NCBI GenBank assembly: GCA_963792575.1
Contig: CAWBWZ010000020.1
Location: 935,788-999,787 of the forward strand
Reading direction: 5' to 3'
Source of the DNA: an uncultured Acidobacteriota bacterium
GTDB taxonomy: Bacteria > Acidobacteriota > Thermoanaerobaculia > Multivoradales > UBA5704
Length of the DNA: 64,000 nt
Shown: positions 30,122 through 44,152 of the stretch, one piece after another
How positions within the stretch are numbered: position 1 is the first letter of the stretch
How the letters are laid out: every line of letters begins with the position of its first letter
The notes under the pieces: generated by a model
Told to the model about the DNA's origin: nothing
Database searches by the model: none
What the model saw: only the letters and a program-made list of their open reading frames with translations
Translations under genes and position numbers: made by a program

Positions 30122-31966
30122 TTACTTCACCGGGTCCCGGACGACGCGGAAGCCGGCGTCGTCATAGCGGAAGTCCGGCTGCACACTGGAAATGTAGGCG
30201 ACAGAACAATTTCTCAAGGCGTTGTTGAAGCCTCCGCCCCGGCGTATCCTCTTGCCCATCGCTATGTCCTCATCGCTCACCCATTCGGAGGCATTGCCCA
30301 GCATGTCGAAGAGACCCAGGCCGTTGGCCGGGTAGAAGCCGACGGGGGCCGTCGCCTCATAGCCGTCGTTCTCCTCTTTATTCTTGCAGTTCACGCTCCC
30401 GAAAGAAGCTTCGGGGGGATTCTTCTCTCCGGCCTGTGCCGCGAACGTCCACTCCTTTCCAGCTGGCAACCGGAACCGGCCTCCGGGCTCACGTTTCTCC
30501 AGCCTCGCGAGGAAAAGTGACGTGTCCTCCCAGGATACCCTCACCACCGGCAGGCCACTACCATGCCGCCGGCTCGGGAGCTTCTTTCCCATGACCTTCG
30601 TCCAAAGGCGCTGGGTGACCTCGAAGCGACCGATACAAAATGGCTGCAAAGGCGGATCAGGAGTCACCTTGACGAAGGCGATCGAAAGTCCCCTGGGCGA
30701 GGGGCATTCCGGAGGATTGAAGCTGGCGTAGACCAGATTGAGATCGAACCAGCGCCTTCCCAGAAGGCGGAAGCCCAGGACCAGGATGGCTACGATGACG
30801 ATGGCGGCGACCCCATATCTCCAGGCTTCCAAAACCCGCTTCAAGGCGTTGGTCGCAACCTCCTTCCGGGAGAGATCGAAGACCTTGCAGTCAGGGGATC
30901 GTGTCGCCAGAACAGGGCTCCCCCACTCTGTGGTGAAACCCTGGACGAACATCGCATTTCGCGTTTTGGAGATCGCGCGATCGATCGGTTCGCGAGCCGC
31001 CAGGCTCTCGTAGAAACATCTGGAAAACAGGATCGCGGCGCGGTCGCTGATCGCGGATTGCATGGCGACGACCGCGGGCAGGCCCCCCTGGATCAGGCTC
31101 TGTGCCAATCCGGAGAACAGCTCGGCGCCATTCCCCTTCGCTCCGTGGCAGACGTTCAGGACCACCAGCCGAAGCTCCGGATGCGCCCCGAGAAGCACGC
31201 TCAGCTCTTGGGCGCCCATCGGATCCGGCCCGCCGGCCTCCCCTTCGAGCAGGATCACCCCGCCGCCACGTTGCTGGTCAAAGGTGCCGTGGCCAATGAA
31301 ATGAAGGATGTGAAAACTCTTTTCGTCGAGCTTCCGGCGCAGAGTATCCCGCGTCGCTCCCTCCAGAATGTCCAACTCCAACCATTCCGCATGCTGAAGG
31401 TCCTCCAGCGAGCGCCGCAGTCCCTCAAGCTCGTCCCGAAACGCGAGAGGGCTGAACCCCTCCGGATGGGCGGCAACAGCAAGCACCCGTATGGGAGGCT
31501 TGACTCGCAGAGGCCGGATGGGCTCCAAATTTTCTTCGTAGCGCAGGACGGGGGTTGAAGGCAGGGTGGCGAGAAACCCGTGAGCAGGATCGAAGAGCAA
31601 TTCCCAGGGACAGTCCCAGAGCCCTGGCGCGAGCAGATGCAGACGGAGCCGAAGAACCTTTCCTGCGCTTTTCGCTCTGCGGAGTTGCCAGGATATGAGA
31701 ATCTGGCCGACGAAAACCGACTGGAAAAGCGAGAGGCCGATCTGGTGGGGAAGATCGCGGGCCGGTCCGGAACCCTTCAGGTCACGGCAGACGCTCTCCG
31801 CCCAAAGCGCGTCTCGCAGTTCCTCCTGAGAGAAAGGGAGAGAGACCTCCGCGTGGGCCTCGCCTCCGCTTTCGGCATCCCGGACCCGCGCCCGATATTG
31901 CTTCTCCCCTGGGGCTTCCCAGATCAGGAGATCGAAATCCTCGGGCCCTTTTCGGCGCTTGAACAT
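30122..31966 (-). CDS. CHAT-domain protease fused through one TM helix to an FGE-sulfatase (SUMF1-like) domain
   Basis: CHAT dyad context FHILHFIGHG and LVVLNVCHGA. TM segment GVAAIVIVAILVLGF. C-terminal RVSWEDTSLFLARL, GLFDMLGNASEWVSD, RRGGGFNN and GFRVVRD match FGE/SUMF1-family motifs. Confidence 0.8.
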   Translation of the reverse strand: MFKRRKGPEDFDLLIWEAPGEKQYRARVRDAESGGEAHAEVSLPFSQEELRDALWAESVCRDLKGSGPARDLPHQIGLSLFQSVFVGQILISWQLRRAKSAGKVLRLRLHLLAPGLWDCPWELLFDPAHGFLATLPSTPVLRYEENLEPIRPLRVKPPIRVLAVAAHPEGFSPLAFRDELEGLRRSLEDLQHAEWLELDILEGATRDTLRRKLDEKSFHILHFIGHGTFDQQRGGGVILLEGEAGGPDPMGAQELSVLLGAHPELRLVVLNVCHGAKGNGAELFSGLAQSLIQGGLPAVVAMQSAISDRAAILFSRCFYESLAAREPIDRAISKTRNAMFVQGFTTEWGSPVLATRSPDCKVFDLSRKEVATNALKRVLEAWRYGVAAIVIVAILVLGFRLLGRRWFDLNLVYASFNPPECPSPRGLSIAFVKVTPDPPLQPFCIGRFEVTQRLWTKVMGKKLPSRRHGSGLPVVRVSWEDTSLFLARLEKREPGGRFRLPAGKEWTFAAQAGEKNPPEASFGSVNCKNKEENDGYEATAPVGFYPANGLGLFDMLGNASEWVSDEDIAMGKRIRRGGGFNNALRNCSVAYISSVQPDFRYDDAGFRVVRDPVK

Positions 31967-35881: not shown

Positions 35882-35986
35882 AAGGACGTAAAGGACGACA
35901 AGGACGACAAGGACAAAACCCCCGATCCTGGGCGGTATCTTCTTGTCCTTGATGTCCTTGATGTCCTTGCCGTCCTTTACGTCCTT
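35882..35986. repeat. inverted array of AAGGACNNN 9-mers (4 units, 24-nt loop, 5 units inverted)
   Basis: aaggacgta aaggacgac aaggacgac aaggacaaa ... cttgtcctt gatgtcctt gatgtcctt gccgtcctt tacgtcctt. Lies between the caspase stop and the aceE start. Confidence 0.85.
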
Positions 35987-36003
35987 TGTTCTTTCCCGCC
36001 GCT

Positions 36004-38079
36004 CTAAATCCCCCGCCCCCCCACCGCCACCGGCGAGGAGACCGGCCGGCGCACCCGGAAGGAGCGGGTGAGGACGGTCCAATCCTCGGGGCCTTCGATC
36101 CGCTCCGCCCGCGTCCGCGTGTCGCGCCGCGTATACCCGCCGCCGCCGAAGGTGGTCAGCAGGAGATCGTCGAGCGAGCTGGCCGGGCCGCCCACCCCCT
36201 CCCGGACGCCGGACTGGAACAGCGGCTGGAAGTCGGCCGGATGGGTGGTGAAGAGGATCTTCAGCGTCTCGACCCCCTCGACCTCCTCACCCGGACCTGC
36301 GGCGAGGAACGGGAACTCGTCGGGGATGTAGAGACTGATCTCGCGGCCCGGCTGAGTCCCCACCTCCAGCGCGATGGCCGGGAGCAGGCAGTCCTCGGCT
36401 CCGGGAGCCGGATAGACGAGCTGGATCCGGCCGGTGAGCCCGAGGTCGAGGAGATAGACGAACAAGGGCTTCTCGTGCTGGTGGGAGATCTTGAACGCCA
36501 CATCATCTCCCTCGTGGAAGAGCGGCAGGCCGCCATCTCCGGCCTCCGGGGCCTGCAGGCCGCTGAGCGTCTTGCGCAGGATCTCGACGTTCACCTTGCC
36601 CGCGAGCGCGCTCGTCGCGTTCTCCAGATCCATGATCAGGCGGTACCGGGCCACCTTTTCCAGATTCTCCCGCAGCACCCCCACCACACCGGGCTCGTGC
36701 CGCCGGCGGGTCGGCATCAGCAGGTCGCCATTCTCCCCGACCACCGCCCAGGTCTCCTCGCGCAGGGGGCCCAGTTGCGGCACGGAAGAGGTTTTCGTGA
36801 CCTTGGAGCGCGGCGCCAGCAGATAGGCCCGGGCCTTGGCATAGCCGCCGCCGCGCTCGGCCCGGCGCAGCACCTTGGAGCCGTCGAGCCCTTCGATGAG
36901 CGCCTGCACATCCTGTCCCGAGGGAGCGATCACCTCGACCGGCATGCGGGTCTCCAGCGCATGGCTCTCCTCCACCCCTCTCATGCCCTCCGTCACCGCT
37001 CCGGGCTGAAGCTCCCGCAGGAGCCGCGCCTCGCTGGTGACCGCCCGCACGGCGGTCAGGGACACCAGCCCCAGGGGCTCCATTTCTGGCGTGACCGCTT
37101 TCGTCCCCGCGGGATAGATCGCCCACTGCGATCCCTCGGTGAGGCCACAGGCGGCGCCCCCGCCGAGGATCACCCGGTCCCCCGACCTCTGCACGACCGG
37201 TACGAACTTCATCGGCTCGATCCGGCCGACGCCGAAGACCGCCAGGTCGCGGGCGCCTTCGAGCTGCGGATGCTGATCGGCGAACCGCGACGACACAAGC
37301 GGTGCCATCGCCTCGAACACGTCCCGGTAGGTGGCGCCGGATTCGGCCTTGAGAAGCTCCCTGCTCAGGAAGAAGGTCAGCGCCCCGTGGCGGACCCCCG
37401 CCGGCTCCTCGATCTCGAACGACCTCTCCTTCTGGCTGCACCCGGAGATCAGGACATATCTCTCCCCGAGGGGGAGCCAGCCGCTCGGACCGACATCCCG
37501 GCCGCCGTCCAGTTGACCGCGGAACGCGAGCGGGATCGGGGAGGGAGGCAACTCGTGGGCCGGCCGGAGATCCGGTTCGACCCACCGGACCTCGCCACCG
37601 AAGTCGTCGCGGACGATCGTCCCCGAGTGGCAGCAATCGAAGATCAGGGTGACGGCGGACGTCTTGGCCGTCAGCTCCCGCAGCCAGAGATAGATCTCGT
37701 CGTCCTTGATATCCCGGTTTTCATGCGGAGCCCGGCCGCTGTCATAGGGCACGATCGTCTCGTCGAGGCCATCCGGCTCATCCCCTTCGAGATCGGTCAT
37801 CTGCGAGCCATGGCCGCTGTAGTGAAAGACGACGATGTCCTCCGGCCCCACCCGCTGAACCAGCTCCCGCATCGCCCCGAGAATGCCCTCCCGGGACGCC
37901 TGCTCATCCGTGATCACGGCGACATGGCTCTCAGGAAAATCAAACGAATTCACGAGGACCTGCCGCATCACCTCGACATCATTGACACAGCCGGAGAGCT
38001 GACCTCGCGGAGCGAAGTTGGGATACCGGTTGATGCCGATCAGCAGGGCCCACTTGGGGCGGTCGTCGGCCTGATTCAT
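36004..38079 (-). CDS. caspase-like peptidase (C14 family) with a ~430-aa C-terminal extension ending in a DUF4384-like module
   Basis: KWALLIGINRY, His in FHYSGHGS and Cys in IFDCCHSGT (clan-CD dyad). No signal peptide. Tail segment DDVAFKISHQHEKPLFVYLLDLGLTGRIQLVYP resembles DUF4384. The ATG overlaps the upstream stop (ATGA). Confidence 0.85.
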   Translation of the reverse strand: MNQADDRPKWALLIGINRYPNFAPRGQLSGCVNDVEVMRQVLVNSFDFPESHVAVITDEQASREGILGAMRELVQRVGPEDIVVFHYSGHGSQMTDLEGDEPDGLDETIVPYDSGRAPHENRDIKDDEIYLWLRELTAKTSAVTLIFDCCHSGTIVRDDFGGEVRWVEPDLRPAHELPPSPIPLAFRGQLDGGRDVGPSGWLPLGERYVLISGCSQKERSFEIEEPAGVRHGALTFFLSRELLKAESGATYRDVFEAMAPLVSSRFADQHPQLEGARDLAVFGVGRIEPMKFVPVVQRSGDRVILGGGAACGLTEGSQWAIYPAGTKAVTPEMEPLGLVSLTAVRAVTSEARLLRELQPGAVTEGMRGVEESHALETRMPVEVIAPSGQDVQALIEGLDGSKVLRRAERGGGYAKARAYLLAPRSKVTKTSSVPQLGPLREETWAVVGENGDLLMPTRRRHEPGVVGVLRENLEKVARYRLIMDLENATSALAGKVNVEILRKTLSGLQAPEAGDGGLPLFHEGDDVAFKISHQHEKPLFVYLLDLGLTGRIQLVYPAPGAEDCLLPAIALEVGTQPGREISLYIPDEFPFLAAGPGEEVEGVETLKILFTTHPADFQPLFQSGVREGVGGPASSLDDLLLTTFGGGGYTRRDTRTRAERIEGPEDWTVLTRSFRVRRPVSSPVAVGGRGI

Positions 38080-38525
38080 GGAAGGGATTTCCTTTCAGAA
38101 GTCTCACGGAGAGAGACACCTTCGGAAGCGGTTTGTTTAGCGGGAACCGCCATCCTCTCCGGCGTGAAACCCGAGTAACTGACACCGAACGGCGAAACGA
38201 TGTGCCATTGGGAGTACGGGAGACGGCGCTTTCCAGGGGGCGTCGGGTTCTTGAACAGGATCTCAAGATGCACGACATGCCCCCTTATTTGGGGTGCGTA
38301 GTCCTTGCCGTCGAGATAGGTGTAGTTCCACCAGATCCAACGTTCGTCACCGAACAGGACCGACTGCCGGGTATTCGGGAGCCCCAGAAGCTCCTCGACC
38401 TCGTCGGCCGTCCGGCCGTTCACCATCGCGGAGATCTGATCGAACGACTTTTCCGCGGGACCAATGTGGCGGCACTGCGCACATACCAGCAGCAGAGCCA
38501 AAAGACAATAATTTATAGGTTTCAT
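38076..38525 (-). CDS. small exported protein (149 aa), possible lipoprotein
   Basis: GGAGG SD then MKPINYCLLALLLVCAQC signal sequence. The rest has no family match I can recall. Translationally coupled to the caspase gene. Confidence 0.6.
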   Translation of the reverse strand: MKPINYCLLALLLVCAQCRHIGPAEKSFDQISAMVNGRTADEVEELLGLPNTRQSVLFGDERWIWWNYTYLDGKDYAPQIRGHVVHLEILFKNPTPPGKRRLPYSQWHIVSPFGVSYSGFTPERMAVPAKQTASEGVSLRETSERKSLP

Positions 38526-38549
38526 GATTGATCCTCCGAGCGAACCGGT

Positions 38550-38594
38550 GCCGGAGCGCAGGCCGGCAGAGCGCCTGCCGCACTGCGCTCCGGC
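38550..38594 (-). other. strong RNA stem-loop (12 + 6 bp) between the sORF and the exported-protein gene
   Basis: gccggagcgcag / ctgcgctccggc with a nested cggcag / ctgccg pair. No T-tract follows, so it is not a canonical terminator. Confidence 0.5.
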
Positions 38595-38619
38595 AAAACT
38601 GGACTGGAAATCTTCCGGC

Positions 38620-38769
38620 TTACGAATCGCCGTCCGGGTCCTTGACGATCGTCTGTACGTGGTCGACGGCTGGCGGCGGCGGGGGATCTTCCCGGGGGAT
38701 GCCGGGGGGCTTCGACTCGGACTCCCCGGCGTTAACATGCTTACCCTGGTCTTTGGAGCTCTGGTCCAT
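38620..38769 (-). CDS. candidate 49-aa Pro/acidic small protein (below the ORF-track cutoff)
   Basis: AAGGAGGAACGC then ATG. Hand translation gives MDQSSKDQGKHVNAGESESKPPGIPREDPPPPPAVDHVQTIVKDPDGDS followed by TAA. Confidence 0.4.
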   Translation of the reverse strand: MDQSSKDQGKHVNAGESESKPPGIPREDPPPPPAVDHVQTIVKDPDGDS

Positions 38770-38908
38770 GCGTTCCTCCTTGCCAAACATCGTTGATGGA
38801 CTGAGGTGCCGCCGGAGGCTGGGAAATACCTGGAGCCTCGCTTCACGATCGGCAGCTTCCTCGCGTTTCCATCTCGGGAAGACACGCTGGTATGGAGCTT
38901 GTTTATAT

Positions 38909-41900
38909 TCATTTACGGAGCGCCTGCCTGGAGGTTCCCACCCCCTTCCATTCCCCCTGTAGAATGAAGCCTGACCAGTAAAACGGGGAGCGCCACGGCT
39001 CGCGCTCGATCATGCGCTCCTGCGCCGATTTTAGAGCAGCCGCGGGCGGAAGGCCCTCAACCAGATATCGATAGAACTGACTCATCAGCTCTGCGCTGGC
39101 GCGATCGTCCACTTTCCAGAGGCTCACCAGGACCGAGGAGGAGCCCCCGACCAGAAACGCCTGTGTCAGACCCACGAGCCCCTCTCCGCGCACGTCCTTT
39201 CCCAGCGCCGTCTGGCAGGCGCTCAACACGACAAGATCAGCGTTCAGCTTAAGATCGTCGATCTCATGGACACGCAGCAGCCCGTCATGCCGCTGCCCTT
39301 GCCGGTCGAACTGCGAGAGAACCAGGCCCGACAATTGTGGATAGACCTCATTGAGAACTCCGTGAGTTACGAAGTGCACGACCCGCGAATCTGACAGGTG
39401 CCCCTGCTTGACCCATTCCCGAGTCGCCCGGAATCCAGAGGCTAGGTCAACGCCGAGCGACTTGGCGAGAGCAAGGGAGCGGACTTGTTGAGCTTCTTCT
39501 CGAGATCTCAGGAGGCGAGAAAGAGGATAAGGCTCCGGCTGGCCAGGTAGCCTCTGCCTCGCCACCGTCGCGGCTTCACGAGGCAATCGCTCATCACCCG
39601 GATTGTAGACGGGGTCCGCCACCATAGACAGGAAACGCTTCCATAAGTGCCGTGCCGTCCGTTGTTTCCGCAGAATGGACAGAACGGAAACCGAAGGCAC
39701 GTTGACCACCTGATGATGCAACACGAGATACGGAAGGGCTACAGCTTCGCGAGCCTTCGACCTCCTGACCGTAGGCTCGAGTAATGCTGAAAACGGAATT
39801 TTCTGGAGCTCACCGTGGGCTACAACCAGGACTCGCTTTCCGACGAGAAGGTGCGCAACCTTCCCCAGAACACAATCGCTGAGACGTTCGAGATCCGCCG
39901 TACTTTTCGGCTCACCTGCCTGCTCAACTCCATTCGCCATGCCCTGATAGACTCTCCGCGCCAATTCACGAAGATCGGAACATTCGATCTCGAAGCCCTG
40001 GAAGGATTCCGGAGTCACGGCCCACACGAAGCTTGCCTCTTCTCCCAGGTAATACTCGACGAGCACCGTCTCCCTGTCCAAGATTCGGTTCTGGATCTCC
40101 CCTAGGGAAAGGGAGGGAGGCAGGCTGAGACTTGGCGTCCGTCCGCCGGCGTTGCGCATCCTGGCTTTGAAGGCTTCGTTCTCTCCGATCAAACGGCGAA
40201 GACGAGCTTCGCCTTCTCTTTTTGCATCCATGGGCATGTCGAGGCGCCGGAGTTGCTGATTCAGTCCGTTGATCTCATCCTGGAGCCTTTGATGCTTCTT
40301 GAGAAGCTCAGGTCTGACGAGTGGATCAGCCCTCTGTCCCTCCTCCTCAGCAAGCGCATCGTAGAGTCCTCGTGCCCGGGCACGCTCACTGGCCTGGAAC
40401 GCCTGCCAAGCGTAACCGGCCCCTGGCCGTATGGAACGCTGCGCCATCAGAAGCTCGATCTTGAGACCGTAAAGATCCTGGTGGTCGGCGAGAAATGACA
40501 CGCGCAAATCGTGGCGTTCCGCTGCGCTGCGCAAGGACTCCGCGACGGCGATCGCTTCATCGATCCTTGCCATCGCGGCGATCGGATTCCCTCTCTTGCG
40601 CTCGGCATAGGCTATGCCATGAAGCAGTTTGGCCTCTGTCGGCTTGTTTCCCCCTTCGCGAGCTAGAAGAAGAGCTTCGTTGAAGATCTTGAGAGCTATC
40701 TCGGTTCGATCCTGAATGGCATGGATCCAGCCCAGATTCACCAGGGAATCGATCTCATCTTTCCGGTCTCCGCCATCCCGGAAGATCTGGGTGGATCGTT
40801 GGAACGCGTTCAACGCATCGCCTAATCGATTGAGACGAAAGTAGGTTGTACCGAGACTGCTCAAGGTGACTCCCTCACCATTGGTGTCTCGGATCTGCTT
40901 GCGGAGCACCAAGGCTTGATCGGCGATGGAGAGCGCCTCCTCCAGCCTTCCCTTGTCCCGGTAGAGCCCTGCTTTCTGCGTGAGAATGATGGCCCGGTTT
41001 TTCAAGTCCGAAGGGGCCACCAGCCGTAGCGCGAGCTCGGTGTCGTCCAGAGCCGAATCCGTCATTCCCATGGAAAGATAGGACCACCCTCTTCCATTAA
41101 ATGCTTGACTTTCGAGGCCCCAGGCCTTCTGTCGATCGAAGCCTTTAATCGCTTGGCTGAAGTGATCCAGAGATTTTTCATATTTACCAAGAGACTGCTC
41201 CATCCGCGCGAGGTTATAGACTGCGGTGATTTCTCCGCTCTGGTCATGGAGACGTCGCCGGATCTCCAACTCCTGAACAAAGAGAGACTCGGCCTGCTGG
41301 AGCTTGCCCTGCCCGTCATAATTCATCGCCATTTCCATCAGAACATTGGCTTGTCCCTGAAAGTCTCGCAAGGCGACCCGCAAGGTGGCGGATTGCTGAT
41401 AGGCCTGGAGAGCTCCGGGGGAATCATGGGCCGCTTCTCGCAACTGCCCCAACAGCTCGAAAGCATCCGCCTGACGGGCCTTGTTGCCCAGGTCTTGCCA
41501 GTTCTGGAGGGCGTACCGCAGATCTGGCTCCGCCTCTTTCAACGAGCCCTTCCGCAGGAGCCCCTTCCCAGTATAAAAAGCTTCCTCAGCCTGAGCGTTC
41601 TTGCGCTCACGATCATCGGCAACCCGAAGGGCCTCGACGCGAAGGGTATAACTTCCCGCCCTCTTTCCTCCGCTGCCGTCCTCGATCCGGACGCCATAGA
41701 GGCCTTCCGCTCGCGCCACGAAAAAGAGGTGCTCCGTCTTGAAGGGGTAGAACTGGGTATCTACACGGAACAGATCGTTACGCCCGGGATCAAACCATAC
41801 GAGCGCGACATCGGCATCGATCGGTTTCGCCGAGAGGTGGACGAATTGCCCTTTCTTCAGCCGCACTCGATAAACTTTCCCCGTGTCGCGCGGTAGTTCT

Positions 41901-42049
41901 CCCTGCTCGATGGGGCCGAGGAGATGTATGGGGGTATCGGGCGGGTCAGAACGAGTTAGCAAGCGTCCCTGGCTGGGCAGGAGCTCGAACCCGACCACGG
42001 GGCTCAGCGCAAGGACACCGAGGAGAAGACGGTTCACAGTACGGAACAT
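38909..42049 (-). CDS. secreted TPR-repeat CHAT-domain protease with an N-terminal beta-sandwich (pre-peptidase PPC-like) domain
   Basis: GGAGGAG SD and signal peptide MFRTVNRLLLGVLALSPVVG. About 15 TPR-like repeats. C-terminal CHAT dyad context VVHFVTHGV and LVVLSACQTALG. Clearly lower GC (sample line 41101-41160 is 53%). Confidence 0.85.
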   Translation of the reverse strand: MFRTVNRLLLGVLALSPVVGFELLPSQGRLLTRSDPPDTPIHLLGPIEQGELPRDTGKVYRVRLKKGQFVHLSAKPIDADVALVWFDPGRNDLFRVDTQFYPFKTEHLFFVARAEGLYGVRIEDGSGGKRAGSYTLRVEALRVADDRERKNAQAEEAFYTGKGLLRKGSLKEAEPDLRYALQNWQDLGNKARQADAFELLGQLREAAHDSPGALQAYQQSATLRVALRDFQGQANVLMEMAMNYDGQGKLQQAESLFVQELEIRRRLHDQSGEITAVYNLARMEQSLGKYEKSLDHFSQAIKGFDRQKAWGLESQAFNGRGWSYLSMGMTDSALDDTELALRLVAPSDLKNRAIILTQKAGLYRDKGRLEEALSIADQALVLRKQIRDTNGEGVTLSSLGTTYFRLNRLGDALNAFQRSTQIFRDGGDRKDEIDSLVNLGWIHAIQDRTEIALKIFNEALLLAREGGNKPTEAKLLHGIAYAERKRGNPIAAMARIDEAIAVAESLRSAAERHDLRVSFLADHQDLYGLKIELLMAQRSIRPGAGYAWQAFQASERARARGLYDALAEEEGQRADPLVRPELLKKHQRLQDEINGLNQQLRRLDMPMDAKREGEARLRRLIGENEAFKARMRNAGGRTPSLSLPPSLSLGEIQNRILDRETVLVEYYLGEEASFVWAVTPESFQGFEIECSDLRELARRVYQGMANGVEQAGEPKSTADLERLSDCVLGKVAHLLVGKRVLVVAHGELQKIPFSALLEPTVRRSKAREAVALPYLVLHHQVVNVPSVSVLSILRKQRTARHLWKRFLSMVADPVYNPGDERLPREAATVARQRLPGQPEPYPLSRLLRSREEAQQVRSLALAKSLGVDLASGFRATREWVKQGHLSDSRVVHFVTHGVLNEVYPQLSGLVLSQFDRQGQRHDGLLRVHEIDDLKLNADLVVLSACQTALGKDVRGEGLVGLTQAFLVGGSSSVLVSLWKVDDRASAELMSQFYRYLVEGLPPAAALKSAQERMIEREPWRSPFYWSGFILQGEWKGVGTSRQALRK

Positions 42050-42178
42050 GAGGCTCCTCCATTCGAGAGCAGCTCAGCAAGCGCCAGGTAAGTACCTGGC
42101 TAGCCGAGCCGACTCGTACGTGCAATTGAATCTACTTATTATACTTGGAGTTGCCGCTCAAGAGGCAGGTCATTTTCC

Positions 42179-42961
42179 TTAGCTTCCTGATGACTTGGAT
42201 ATGACGCGTGCCAGGTATTCCTCAAGCAAATCCAAACTGCCCCCATGGGCCCCGACCAGACGAAATGTATACGAACCCGGTTTCAAGAAGTTTTCAGGAA
42301 TAATTATGGTCAATTTGCCATGTTCATCTTTGCGCAGGGCTTTCTCCCAGATCGGCTTGTCCTCGCTGTCCATGATCTGGACTCTATATTCGCCGTACTC
42401 CTTGGGAGCTGACGTTTCGAGATTCACCCGGACAGTGCGATCCGCTGGCAGCTCGAAAGCTTCGCCGCGAATGCTCCGCAGGCTGATCGTTTGCGGATTC
42501 ACGATCGGCTGCCGCAGCTCCGCCACTTGGCTCCGAAGCTCAGTCACTTCTTCCCGGTGTGAGCTGATCATTTGCAAGAAGGAGAGTCCCAGTAGGATCA
42601 GGGCCCCGGCCAGAGAAGCCGCGAGCGGCTGTGCGAAGCGCTTTCGTGGCTTGGCCTTTGCTGGCTGCGGGAGGTGATCCCGCAACTGCCGCCAGTCTGC
42701 CGCGGCCTCGAAGTCGACCACCGGCTCGGTGGCCACCGCCGGCGGCTTGAGGAACTCCTCCAGATCCAGGAGCAGCTCCGTGCAGTGCTGGCAGACGGCG
42801 AGGTGGTCCTGGATCCGCTCATCCTGCTCCGGAGTCAGCTCGTTCGCCTGGTAGGCGGACAGCTCTTCCGGACTGGGATGCTCCTCGGGGTCGCGCCGCT
42901 GGCGGCCATCCTCGGCAAGAAAGCCGAGCATCTCGTCCAGATCCTGGGTCTCGTCGCTCAC
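42179..42961 (-). CDS. anti-sigma factor (zf-HC2), single TM helix, beta-rich extracytoplasmic domain
   Basis: GTG start overlaps the sigma stop (GTGA). HLAVCQHCTELL is the zf-HC2 motif. TM segment LAASLAGALILLGLSFLQMI. About 130 aa lie outside the membrane. Confidence 0.8.
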   Translation of the reverse strand: MSDETQDLDEMLGFLAEDGRQRRDPEEHPSPEELSAYQANELTPEQDERIQDHLAVCQHCTELLLDLEEFLKPPAVATEPVVDFEAAADWRQLRDHLPQPAKAKPRKRFAQPLAASLAGALILLGLSFLQMISSHREEVTELRSQVAELRQPIVNPQTISLRSIRGEAFELPADRTVRVNLETSAPKEYGEYRVQIMDSEDKPIWEKALRKDEHGKLTIIIPENFLKPGSYTFRLVGAHGGSLDLLEEYLARVISKSSGS

Positions 42962-43644
42962 AATGGTTCCTCTCCCCCGTCGCCCAGCTTCTCGATGAGC
43001 CGTTTGCGGGCCTGATGGAGGTGCGCCTTGACGGTCTCGATGGAGATCTTCATGACCGTCGCGATCTCCTGGTACTTCAGCCCTCTTACATAGCGCAGCA
43101 TGCAACAGGTCCGCATCTGGGGCGGCAGTTCCCGCAGGGCCGAGCGCAGGCGCGCGCGTCGCTCCCCCTTAATCATGGAGTCCAGCGCGCTCTGCTCCTG
43201 TGAGACCGGCTCCACGACCTGGGCAGCAACGCCGCCCCCATCCTCCGGAGAGACATTGATCGACACCTCCACCGCATCCCGCTTCTCCGCTCCCTTCCTC
43301 CGGAGCTCGTTCCGGAAGGCGTTGGCGGCGATCTCGAACAGCCATCTTTCAAACCTGGATTCACGTCGAAAGGTGGCTATAGCTTGAAAGACACGAGAAA
43401 AGACATCCTGGGTGAGGTCGCGGCTTTCTTCAGGAGAACAGTGCTTGCGGCGGAAAAAATTAATGATCTTCCGATAGTGCAGCTCGTAAAGCTGCCGGGA
43501 GTTCTCCTCGACATCGATGCCCGCCTGGATCTGCTCGATCAGACGGAGGCTGGGGTCCTGGTCGTCCAAGGCTGGGGTTAAACCGTTCGGGAGCTCAATG
43601 GGGTGTCCGCGCCCATCGCTGGATGCGTAGAAAGATTGCGACAT
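42958..43644 (-). CDS. ECF (group IV) sigma-70 family factor
   Basis: Region 2 (LYELHYRKIINFFRRK..DLTQDVFSRVF) and region 4 (YQEIATVMKISIETVKAHLHQARKRL). The start is taken at the internal Met. The ORF-track start at 43716 overlaps the predicted -10 element. Confidence 0.85.
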   Translation of the reverse strand: MSQSFYASSDGRGHPIELPNGLTPALDDQDPSLRLIEQIQAGIDVEENSRQLYELHYRKIINFFRRKHCSPEESRDLTQDVFSRVFQAIATFRRESRFERWLFEIAANAFRNELRRKGAEKRDAVEVSINVSPEDGGGVAAQVVEPVSQEQSALDSMIKGERRARLRSALRELPPQMRTCCMLRYVRGLKYQEIATVMKISIETVKAHLHQARKRLIEKLGDGGEEPL

Positions 43645-43711
43645 CGAGATGCCTGGAATCCGACCCAAGGTACAGAAGATGACGCCAAAGTATAGGAAAA
43701 TCTCCTTAGTG

Positions 43712-43741
43712 AACATATGTCTTCCCAGCTGAATCTGTCAA
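43712..43741 (-). promoter_or_regulatory. sigma70-type promoter upstream of the ECF sigma gene
   Basis: Minus strand reads TTGACA, an 18-nt spacer, then TATGTT. Confidence 0.45.
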
Positions 43742-43759: not shown

Positions 43760-44152
43760 ATGTCGTGGACTCTCCTGATGGCCGACGAAGAGGGGACCCC
43801 GCTGCAGGAGACCTTCGTCATCCTCGACGACGAGCTGGTGGGCTATCTTTCCGGGCTCACGGGGTTCCCCGTCTTCCAGGGGCTCCGGGGGCTCGATCCC
43901 GCCGAGGAGACGTGGATCGACGCGGAGGTCCGGGGGATGTGGGAGCTGGAGATCGCGGAGCTCGCGATGCGCGCCCGGAAGCGGGAGATCCCCGAGCCCC
44001 CGGAGTGGGTCGGGCTGGAGGGGACGGACGACATCCGCCTCGGCGAGGAGCTCGGCTGGCGCGGGCTCCTCGACTTCCTGCAGCGGCTCGAGCACCTCCT
44101 CCATCTCTCCCGGACGATGGGGATGGAGCTCTGGGCCCTCCCCAACGACTAG
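43760..44152 (+). CDS. hypothetical acidic protein (130 aa)
   Basis: Intact ORF with strong GC3 bias. No SD and no family recognised. Divergent from the ECF operon. Confidence 0.5.
   Translation: MSWTLLMADEEGTPLQETFVILDDELVGYLSGLTGFPVFQGLRGLDPAEETWIDAEVRGMWELEIAELAMRARKREIPEPPEWVGLEGTDDIRLGEELGWRGLLDFLQRLEHLLHLSRTMGMELWALPND

Follow-up and report, generated by a model that had tools for sequence, protein, structure and literature searches.

A conserved acidobacterial gene module linking an extracytoplasmic-function sigma factor and a predicted envelope TPR-CHAT protease to an exchangeable caspase-type effector

Can a clan-CD protease outside the bacterial membrane govern, via a sigma factor of the extracytoplasmic-function (ECF) type, a second clan-CD protease in the cytoplasm? 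This question is raised by a six-gene locus of an uncultured Acidobacteriota bacterium, of Thermoanaerobaculia type to judge by how its nearest relatives are named, situated in a 64,000-nucleotide stretch of contig CAWBWZ010000020.1 (assembly GCA_963792575.1) that was analysed as a whole and is here called the window. An initial annotation, made from the sequence letters alone, had read the locus as one operon under one promoter and had proposed that an exported tetratricopeptide-repeat (TPR) protein with a CHAT protease domain cleaves the anti-sigma factor, upon which the sigma factor induces a caspase. All six open reading frames (ORFs) were recovered on the minus strand of the window with the boundaries it had given, in the order sigma, anti-sigma, exported TPR-CHAT, short ORF (sORF), lipoprotein p149 and C14 caspase, and matches to Pfam and NCBIfam families were obtained for four of the products, which bears out the six-gene layout. 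These genes, together with a stem-loop among them, are:

42958-43644, minus strand: ECF sigma factor of the RpoE/AlgU/SigW type; the ORF reaches 43716, where its ATG lies inside the -10 box of the promoter-like element P1
42179-42961, minus strand: anti-sigma factor, a single-pass ZAS (zf-HC2) protein of 260 aa with an ectodomain of ~125 aa; its GTG start lies in the sigma stop (GTGA, 42958-42961)
38909-42049, minus strand: TPR-CHAT protease of 1046 aa, predicted to be exported or membrane-anchored; CHAT match 1.5e-57, dyad H896/C945
38620-38769, minus strand: sORF of 49 aa, proline-rich and acidic, without signal peptide; AAGGAGG 6 nt upstream
38550-38595, minus strand: G+C-rich stem-loop that separates the sORF from the lipoprotein gene; -50.2 kcal/mol, z = -3.6
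38076-38525, minus strand: p149, an exported lipoprotein of 149 aa with the signature motif DERWIWWNYT
36004-38079, minus strand: caspase of the Peptidase_C14 metacaspase/orthocaspase type, 691 aa with a long tail, predicted cytoplasmic; its ATG overlaps the p149 stop (ATGA)

An exact search of contigs for the CHAT protein of the window gave no match, although the protein collection has an identical entry (P0001). Similarity to the CHAT protein proved unspecific for finding further copies of this arrangement: homologues of 33-35% identity (P0009, P0012 and P0016) had neither sigma nor caspase neighbours, so CHAT similarity alone does not define the module, and p149 was chosen as the marker instead. 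This marker led to 66 loci from metagenomes and to 20 from species-representative genomes, the latter exclusively Acidobacteriota. In 49 of 53 non-duplicate loci, p149 had a TPR-CHAT gene no more than 900 nt upstream, while a sigma gene lay upstream of p149 in 30 of 31, with the sigma/anti-sigma pairing likewise kept in 30 of the 31. The order from sigma to lipoprotein was kept in about 90 related loci (cited below by L numbers), every taxonomically assigned one of which belongs to the Acidobacteriota. With the C14 gene included, it was kept in close relatives (88-89% CHAT identity), in a relative of 52% and in one of 36% (L009), the last of which has its module beside hsp70 genes, in another chromosomal context than that of the window; the gene order as such was retained down to 31-36% CHAT identity. 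Moreover, all module genes are under purifying selection (dN/dS 0.1-0.66; sORF 0.09-0.66). The conservation of gene order supports a conserved functional module and not a chance neighbourhood, and the co-occurrence of ECF sigma, anti-sigma and TPR-CHAT genes that the initial annotation had wished to see surveyed was found. As judged from sequence comparison, five genes make up the core of the module, and a cytoplasmic clan-CD effector of exchangeable family is joined to them. Its neighbours in the window are genes for adenosine deaminase, a cytidylyltransferase, pyruvate dehydrogenase E1 (PDH E1) and YceI, and adenosine deaminase and PDH E1 flank the module in many genomes. No description of the module was found in the literature searched, outside which lay the supplements of the ECF classification paper (PMC7826278).

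The regulatory pair conforms to a familiar type. The sigma factor matched Sigma70_r2 (4.5e-13), r4_2 (4.6e-15) and Sigma70_ECF in Pfam as well as TIGR02937 (1.2e-30; 106 bits against a cut-off of 42.9), and its best solved relatives are AlgU (6in7), sigma-E (1or7) and SigW (5wuq). RpoE-, AlgU- and SigW-like proteins are the classic sigma factors governed by regulated proteolysis of the anti-sigma factor. Translation most likely starts at 43644, because the first ATG of the ORF falls inside the -10 box of P1. The anti-sigma factor matched zf-HC2 (1.6e-6; 28.5 bits against a cut-off of 22.2), and among five orthologues the HxxxCxxC motif (H53, C57 and C60) was invariant and one hydrophobic segment followed by a beta-rich ectodomain was conserved. 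Its top solved match, the N-terminal domain of DdvA (8rlz), is weak (E = 0.1). Both the ECF assignment and the description of a GTGA-overlapped zf-HC2 protein with one transmembrane helix thus stand.

For the third product, the TPR-CHAT protein, the Pfam match to CHAT was accompanied by one to TPR_12 (2e-36), and the two dyad residues, H896 in VTHG and C945 in LSACQTA, were invariant among 34 CHAT homologues, in agreement with the 1046-aa signal-peptide protein and dyad described initially. Its AlphaFold2 (AF2) model (pLDDT 87.5) begins with an N-terminal helix and a disordered linker, followed by an eight-stranded beta-sandwich (residues 47-143; predicted where the initial annotation had placed a PPC-like one), ~27 helices (146-634) and the CHAT domain (649-1032). 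A TPR superhelix is therefore present as claimed, but it contains ~10 regular TPR pairs in the model rather than ~15. The best Foldseek matches of this model were Csx29 (8eey_B, 1.5e-16), DdvA (8rw5, 7.3e-16) and separase (1e-14), with the two DdvA structures 8rw5 and 8rot both at E values of ~1e-15. When profiles were compared with the sequences of the Protein Data Bank (PDB), TPR proteins dominated the matches of the full-length profile, and with the CHAT-only profile the Csx29 and separase matches were insignificant and DdvA was not matched; the Cys region aligned weakly with the GACET motif of Csx29 (E = 0.56). It was the structural comparison that settled the relationship. No SAVED domain was matched by Pfam in the protein set of the window. 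An N-terminal hydrophobic segment was found in 35 of the 37 module CHAT proteins, at least 10 of which carry a lipobox, and for this reason an extracytoplasmic location of the TPR-CHAT family is supported, in line with the earlier placement of one clan-CD protease in the envelope.

A comparison of the window with two near relatives, L018 and L041, revealed which parts of the module are replaced together:

38105-42678, minus strand: exchangeable sensor cassette, consisting of the anti-sigma transmembrane segment and ectodomain, TPR-CHAT, sORF and p149, as delimited by blastn against L018 and L041

Nucleotide identity stands at 87-89% over the upstream flank, p130 (a gene divergent from sigma), the sigma gene and that part of the anti-sigma gene which encodes the cytoplasmic domain, its first 283 nt (to 42678). 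From 42678 to ~38105-38069 there is no similarity except for 110 nt inside p149, and similarity resumes at the caspase start (81%), with PDH E1 at 92-93%. The breakpoints thus coincide with the junction of ZAS domain and transmembrane segment and with the junction of p149 and caspase. Identities to the window are accordingly discordant within single loci, at 79% for the caspase and 32% for CHAT in L018 and at 66% and 51%, respectively, in L005. On these alignments, the extracytoplasmic parts plus the sORF are swapped as one cassette between lineages, which suggests that specificity is being diversified; because they are exchanged as one block, the outside parts would be expected to work together.

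The cassette falls within a region of lower G+C content (0.53-0.66 at 38.0-44.0 kb, versus flanks of 0.64-0.70 and above). A drop in composition at ~38.1-43.7 kb had been pointed out before, and it is clearer at third codon positions, where the G+C content (GC3) is 0.74 for sigma, 0.73 for anti-sigma, 0.65 for CHAT, 0.67 for p149 and 0.87 for the caspase, as compared with 0.92-0.95 for flanking genes. It had been taken as a sign of horizontal acquisition, and as a recent event this reading did not hold. The same GC3 pattern occurs in relatives down to 28-51% CHAT identity and is common to all cassette types, including very different CHAT types, and the module was absent from the plasmid and phage collections searched. 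Because of these two observations, a single recent acquisition of the island was rejected, and its composition probably reflects recurrent exchange or relaxed codon usage.

How the genes might be transcribed was read from footprinting of the related loci, which yielded three conserved promoter-like elements:

43712-43741, minus strand: P1, sigma-70-type, TTGACA-18-TATGTT, upstream of sigma, located by consensus scan
42138-42143, minus strand: P2, a -10-like box TATAAT (most relatives have TACAAT), located after the anti-sigma gene and before CHAT
38878-38903, minus strand: P3, an ECF-type motif AAC-N17-GTCTTC that begins 6 nt after the CHAT stop and ~100 nt upstream of the sORF

P1 is the promoter already named in the initial annotation, in which P2 and P3 did not appear. 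Its hexamers and spacing are kept in the window and in L005, L012, L013, L018, L020 and L024, whose surrounding sequences have diverged. In the ~60-nt leader between P1 and the likely sigma start (43645-43705, minus strand), a stretch resembling AAGGAAGTAyTTwCGyA is kept across diverged loci as well. P2 lies in the 129-nt gap that separates the CHAT start from the anti-sigma stop; 21 of 34 loci had a TA[CT][AG]AT box within 110 nt past the anti-sigma stop, where 0.025 would be expected, and loci without other nucleotide similarity to the window were among them. P3, defined as AAC-N16-18-[GT]TCT[CT]C, was found on the coding strand between -128 and +55 nt relative to the CHAT stop in all 21 loci first examined, the background rate being 0.086 per kb of a strand, and in 50 of 68 loci under a wider search; the strict form occurs once in the window. 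Its spacing and letters resemble those of sigma-E, AlgU and sigma-M promoters. With three elements conserved, the single promoter and single operon of the initial annotation are not upheld, and the locus is probably not one operon. The sensor genes would be expressed from housekeeping-type promoters, and sORF, p149 and effector would form the ECF-dependent output; the position of P3 in front of the latter three genes lends independent support to an induction of the caspase through ECF activity.

The first two genes of this putative output are small. In every locus examined, the CHAT and lipoprotein genes enclose an ATG ORF of 45-77 aa that has the same composition and is preceded by a strong Shine-Dalgarno sequence, and peptide motifs are common within subgroups of loci. 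The sORF was concluded to be a real gene. The stem-loop begins ~25 nt past its stop codon, and comparable hairpins of different sequence occupy the same position in most loci, some of them followed by TTCTTTC. A functional peptide is favoured over a pure attenuation leader, given this distance of the hairpin from the stop, the subgroup motifs and dN/dS values below 1. No product of the module is better conserved or more diagnostic than p149 (50% identity to its L009 copy versus 36% for CHAT), and a lipobox is present in most p149 homologues. Only 42 clusters of homologues were detected in 5.8 billion proteins, none with a Pfam domain or annotation. Pfam BamE was matched below threshold in 10 of 13 family members (best 0.0075), and the AF2 model (pLDDT 80; order H-H-E-E-E-E, as compared with alpha-alpha-beta-beta-beta in BamE/SmpA_OmlA lipoproteins) had top Foldseek matches that were all BamE, albeit weak (E >=0.24), so the fold is possibly BamE-like. 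The proline-rich and acidic sORF with its Shine-Dalgarno sequence, the stem-loop and the small exported protein had all been recognised in the initial annotation.

The sixth gene is where the module varies. In the window, the caspase matched Peptidase_C14 (7.6e-26; 91.7 bits), and its HYSGHG and FDCCHSG motifs align residue for residue with H220 and C276 of Yca1 (4f6o), which substantiates the ATGA-coupled C14 caspase with a YSGHGS/FDCCHSG dyad. The catalytic Cys of FDCCHSG is the second one, as judged from the aligned C276A mutant structure (4f6p), and the acidic stretch DGLDETIVPYD is conserved in the same alignment. DUF4384 (PF14326) scored 13.2-13.9 bits against a cut-off of 27 (E = 0.06-0.095) at residues 521-563 and recurred at E <=1 in 13 of 20 caspase family members (best 1.3e-4); the DUF4384-like module is therefore a family-wide, sub-threshold signal that lies in mid-tail, not at the end of the tail as first described. 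Signal peptides were not detected in any of the effector proteins (C14, C25-like and C14-TIR), which agrees with a second clan-CD protease in the cytoplasm. Among 57 loci, the gene after p149 encodes a long-tailed C14 caspase in 18, a C25-like protein in 27 and a C14-TIR protein in two, and is missing in nine. The caspase is replaced by other families or absent in the remaining loci, and the fixed dual-protease composition assumed at first is not a property of the module. The C25-like effectors carry invariant SHG and FACYGAG motifs, each after hydrophobic strands.

The effector loci differ further in their gene content. Four loci (L077, L083, L092 and L094) have a C25-like gene and a C14 caspase gene in tandem after p149. 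A conserved downstream gene set follows in the C25-like loci L019, L021 (3358-10175), L022, L025, L028, L045, L050, L076 and L091; it comprises a second, TPR-less CHAT (~710 aa), a CsgG-like lipoprotein, an exported protein of 260 aa and an exported Trypsin_2-CsgG-PEGA protein. In L027 (4872-7878) and L067, a Peptidase_C14-TIR fusion stands behind p149, with an exported C14-Lcl_C protein next in line, and in L027 no TPR-CHAT gene directly precedes p149. Behind the caspase of L009 (14187-19065), the most distant complete module, lie two large genes without Pfam matches (605 and 1023 aa), adjoined on the opposite strand by a CHAT-AAA_16/NACHT gene. Full-length relatives of the 691-aa caspase (45-51% identity) also occur in Cyanobacteria and Chloroflexi. 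Two such relatives (47-48%), in L030 (Tolypothrix) and L031 (Chloroflexi), are situated amid C14, CHAT, TPR-CHAT and STAND-C14 genes and transposases, and no sigma or anti-sigma gene was found near them.

To what known system does such a module correspond? The initial annotation had seen no fit to Craspase or CBASS layouts; this stands in so far as no Cas7-11, Csx30 or Csx31 and no cas or CD-NTase genes were found among the neighbours in the window region, yet the precedents set by DdvS/DdvA, Craspase-Csx30-RpoE and SAVED-CHAT/PCaspase had gone unrecognised, and because these exist the locus is less unprecedented than was implied. The closest known system is DdvS/DdvA of Myxococcus xanthus, in which an ECF sigma factor is paired with a transmembrane ZAS anti-sigma factor that carries a periplasmic TPR-CHAT part (PMC6061681, PMC11506125). 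The CHAT domain of DdvA was proposed to be its own site-1 protease acting before RseP, which the authors could not show: mutation of the dyad caused no phenotype in the conditions used there, and no autoproteolysis was seen (PMC11506125). Both systems have an ECF sigma factor, a cytoplasmic HxxxCxxC anti-sigma domain, one transmembrane helix and a TPR-CHAT part with a His-Cys dyad outside the membrane (predicted here), and for both a CHAT site-1 cut followed by RseP is the proposed logic. The window locus is a split version of this layout with a protease output. Its TPR-CHAT is encoded by a gene apart and carries a signal sequence, in contrast to that of DdvA, which is fused to ZAS domain and transmembrane helix; its anti-sigma gene ends at 42179 with an ectodomain of its own, ~125 aa long; the conserved sORF and p149 are additions; the inferred output is a clan-CD protease instead of CBASS and CRISPR-Cas; and the hosts are Acidobacteriota instead of Myxococcota. 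Beyond shared domains, no sequence-level relation to DdvA was detected.

In the type III-E system Craspase, the TPR-CHAT protein Csx29 reportedly cleaves Csx30, the holder of the ECF sigma factor RpoE/CASP-sigma. Control of an ECF sigma factor by TPR-CHAT cleavage of its partner is what is proposed here too, and Csx29 is the best structural match. However, Cas7-11/gRAMP, crRNA, Csx30 and Csx31 were not found in the window region, nor were those genes in the ~90 related loci; the CHAT protein is predicted to be extracytoplasmic, with a cue from the envelope in place of a target RNA, and the anti-sigma factor is a classical membrane ZAS protein. A third parallel is the type III-B system of Haliangium ochraceum, where SAVED-CHAT cleaves and activates the C14 protease PCaspase, which in turn cleaves PCc-sigma and the inhibitor PCi (bioRxiv 10.1101/2023.06.23.546230). 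That cascade shares with our locus the clustering of CHAT, Peptidase_C14, sigma and small accessory protein and the caspase as executioner, but the window has no SAVED domain, cyclase or CRISPR, and its CHAT and caspase are predicted in different compartments; because of this difference, the link between the two proteases is probably transcriptional, via sigma, and not one of direct cleavage. Finally, sigma type, single-pass anti-sigma factor and an AAC...TCT/GTCT-type promoter motif recall RpoE/RseA/RseB/DegS/RseP and SigW/RsiW/PrsW/RasP. Unlike in those systems, the candidate site-1 protease is a module-encoded clan-CD cysteine protease with a TPR sensor, the sensor is cassette-exchangeable and the output is a cytoplasmic caspase-type protein.

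The reading that we prefer, and to which we give about an even chance, is an envelope-to-cytoplasm signalling module with a split DdvS/DdvA layout. Sigma, anti-sigma and the CHAT sensor would be made constitutively from the housekeeping-type P1 and P2. The CHAT protease would respond to an extracytoplasmic cue, probably a protein to which its TPR or beta-sandwich part binds; once active, it would clip the anti-sigma ectodomain (site-1 cut), and an RseP-type intramembrane protease would then release sigma. The freed sigma factor would transcribe sORF, p149 and caspase from P3; p149 may feed back on the sensor, and the hairpin behind the sORF may reduce how often transcripts run on into the protease gene. 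The induced caspase-type protease, or elsewhere its C25-like or C14-TIR counterpart, would remodel or destroy cytoplasmic proteins, most likely in a conflict, phage-defence or severe-stress response. CHAT as the site-1 protease of the anti-sigma factor is plausible by analogy, and indirect support comes from the exchange of ectodomain, CHAT, sORF and lipoprotein as one block. We infer a biological role in defence, stress or cell death, with conflict or defence being suggested by cassette exchange, effector swapping and the TIR fusion. A more far-reaching version, in which the swappable-cassette TPR-CHAT initiator senses an envelope protein of a phage or competitor and cleaves the anti-sigma factor, and the ECF sigma factor launches a clan-CD executioner that kills or arrests the cell, would make this a novel Acidobacteriota family of cell-fate switches and a receptor-to-caspase pathway routed through transcription; we regard it as possible but doubtful.

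Several observations weigh against this signalling model. P3 is a motif and not a mapped start, and it was derived from these same, mutually related loci; a P3-like motif was not seen upstream of sigma, and the positive autoregulation common for ECF sigma factors is not evident. The sORF is without a signal peptide yet travels with the extracytoplasmic cassette, which the model leaves unexplained, and with no protease behind p149 in nine of 57 loci the output may be mainly sORF and p149. In the window, moreover, the module is set among housekeeping genes (adenosine deaminase and PDH E1) and in no defence island, and no complete known defence system of PADLOC-DB 2.0 was matched: the hits were to generic caspase (PDLC02987, 4e-29) and TPR (PDLC01169) models, together with a weak match of sigma to CARF3--CARF models (E = 0.002-0.004), while anti-sigma, sORF and p149 had zero matches. 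The housekeeping context and the effector-less loci point away from a role in conflict or defence.

The same wiring would also accommodate a CHAT protein other than a site-1 protease. TPR-CHAT and p149 could then act as a ligand co-sensor or as an RseB-like protector of the anti-sigma factor, or CHAT could cut p149 or another envelope protein, the initial cut of the anti-sigma factor being left to a separate protease of the DegS or PrsW type. Dedicated serine or metallo site-1 proteases are the norm for RpoE-type sigma factors, p149 gives a weak BamE-like signal, co-exchange of the cassette suits binding as well as cleavage, and the DdvA dyad mutations without phenotype or observed autoproteolysis (PMC11506125) fit here as well. 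The invariance of His and Cys in 34 homologues, which argues that protease activity is under selection, and the lack of any other conserved envelope protease gene in the core module tell the other way, and we hold this alternative to be unlikely, if well short of negligible. Of low yet appreciable probability, too, is an ordinary circuit for envelope stress or surface remodelling, with the caspase as a regulated housekeeping or developmental protease. It would be in keeping with the adenosine deaminase/PDH E1 setting in many genomes, with the wide and well-conserved occurrence of the 691-aa caspase family in Cyanobacteria and Chloroflexi, with purifying selection on all genes, and with the absence of plasmid or phage copies and the nine effector-less loci. 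It sits less well with the exchange of sensor cassettes between close relatives, the swapping of effectors including the C14-TIR fusion and the low GC3 of the sensor genes, all of which suggest an arms race, and with the control of anti-phage systems by DdvS/DdvA, the closest characterised relative.

A direct cascade as in Haliangium III-B, where CHAT would cleave the caspase and the sigma/anti-sigma pair would be a downstream substrate or side branch, is quite improbable. That SAVED-CHAT cuts PCaspase, and PCaspase cuts sigma and inhibitor, provides the precedent; CHAT and C14 genes cluster in Cyanobacteria and Chloroflexi too, and a second, TPR-less CHAT stands beside the C25-like protease in loci of that type. 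Nevertheless, with TPR-CHAT predicted outside the membrane in 35 of 37 cases and effectors devoid of signal peptides, the two would not meet, and whereas CHAT and p149 form a constant pair, the effector differs in family between loci or is missing. That the genes are merely adjacent and form unrelated transcription units, as the three separate promoter-like elements and the variable effector gene might be taken to indicate, is very improbable in view of an order kept down to 31-36% CHAT identity and in other contexts (L009, hsp70), the GTGA and ATGA start/stop overlaps and the ECF-type motif before the output genes.

Around the module, three further features were annotated, of which p130 and the CHAT-FGE-sulfatase gene had been overlooked in the initial annotation:

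43760-44152, plus strand: p130, a gene of 130 aa divergent from sigma; GC3 0.95, no Pfam match
35886-35982, strand not assigned: hairpin of AAGGAC/GTCCTT repeats with a ~32-bp stem, directly past the caspase stop; -72.7 kcal/mol, z = -7.5
30122-31966, minus strand: CHAT-FGE-sulfatase fusion of 614 aa, a third nearby clan-CD gene; CHAT 7.5e-28, FGE-sulfatase 6e-25

The p130 gene lies beside sigma in L001-L005, L010, L012, L013, L018, L020, L024 and L032, and on the other side of the module, by PDH E1, in L016, L070 and L085; its membership of the module is uncertain, and it may instead be a marker of the insertion site. The hairpin past the caspase is a possible marker of where the output unit ends on its 3' side, and the hairpin sequence is not conserved in L010, L018 and L041, though the flanks are 81-93% identical. 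An identity of this hairpin as miRNA was rejected, the Rfam matches on both strands being spurious matches to the palindrome; the Rfam scan was otherwise empty. The CHAT-FGE-sulfatase gene is downstream of PDH E1 and YceI, and CHAT2-type matches were obtained by tblastn in the same relative place in L010, L012, L018, L020 and L024, while the L032 gene is annotated as CHAT plus FGE-sulfatase. Two further ORFs were dismissed as high-G+C artefacts: one of 278 aa (38076-38912, minus strand), which passes through the sORF out of frame and then shares the reading frame of p149, and one of 730 aa (35986-38178, plus strand), which is antisense to the caspase.

What the module offers to the study of regulated proteolysis follows from its split layout. 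Self-cleavage of DdvA is undemonstrated partly because protease and substrate share one polypeptide; here the protease and its candidate substrate are separate proteins, which makes a clan-CD site-1 role for an ECF anti-sigma factor directly testable, and the natural cassette variants provide matched and mismatched pairs of sensor and anti-sigma factor for specificity. Furthermore, p149 defines a new family of small lipoproteins and a compact marker for the module, alongside a conserved small protein encoded by the sORF. The variable output (caspase, gingipain-like or caspase-TIR) ties envelope sensing to caspase-type effectors without CRISPR or cyclic nucleotides and, if the role is indeed defence, the module would add a transcription-coupled protease system to those of a poorly studied soil phylum.

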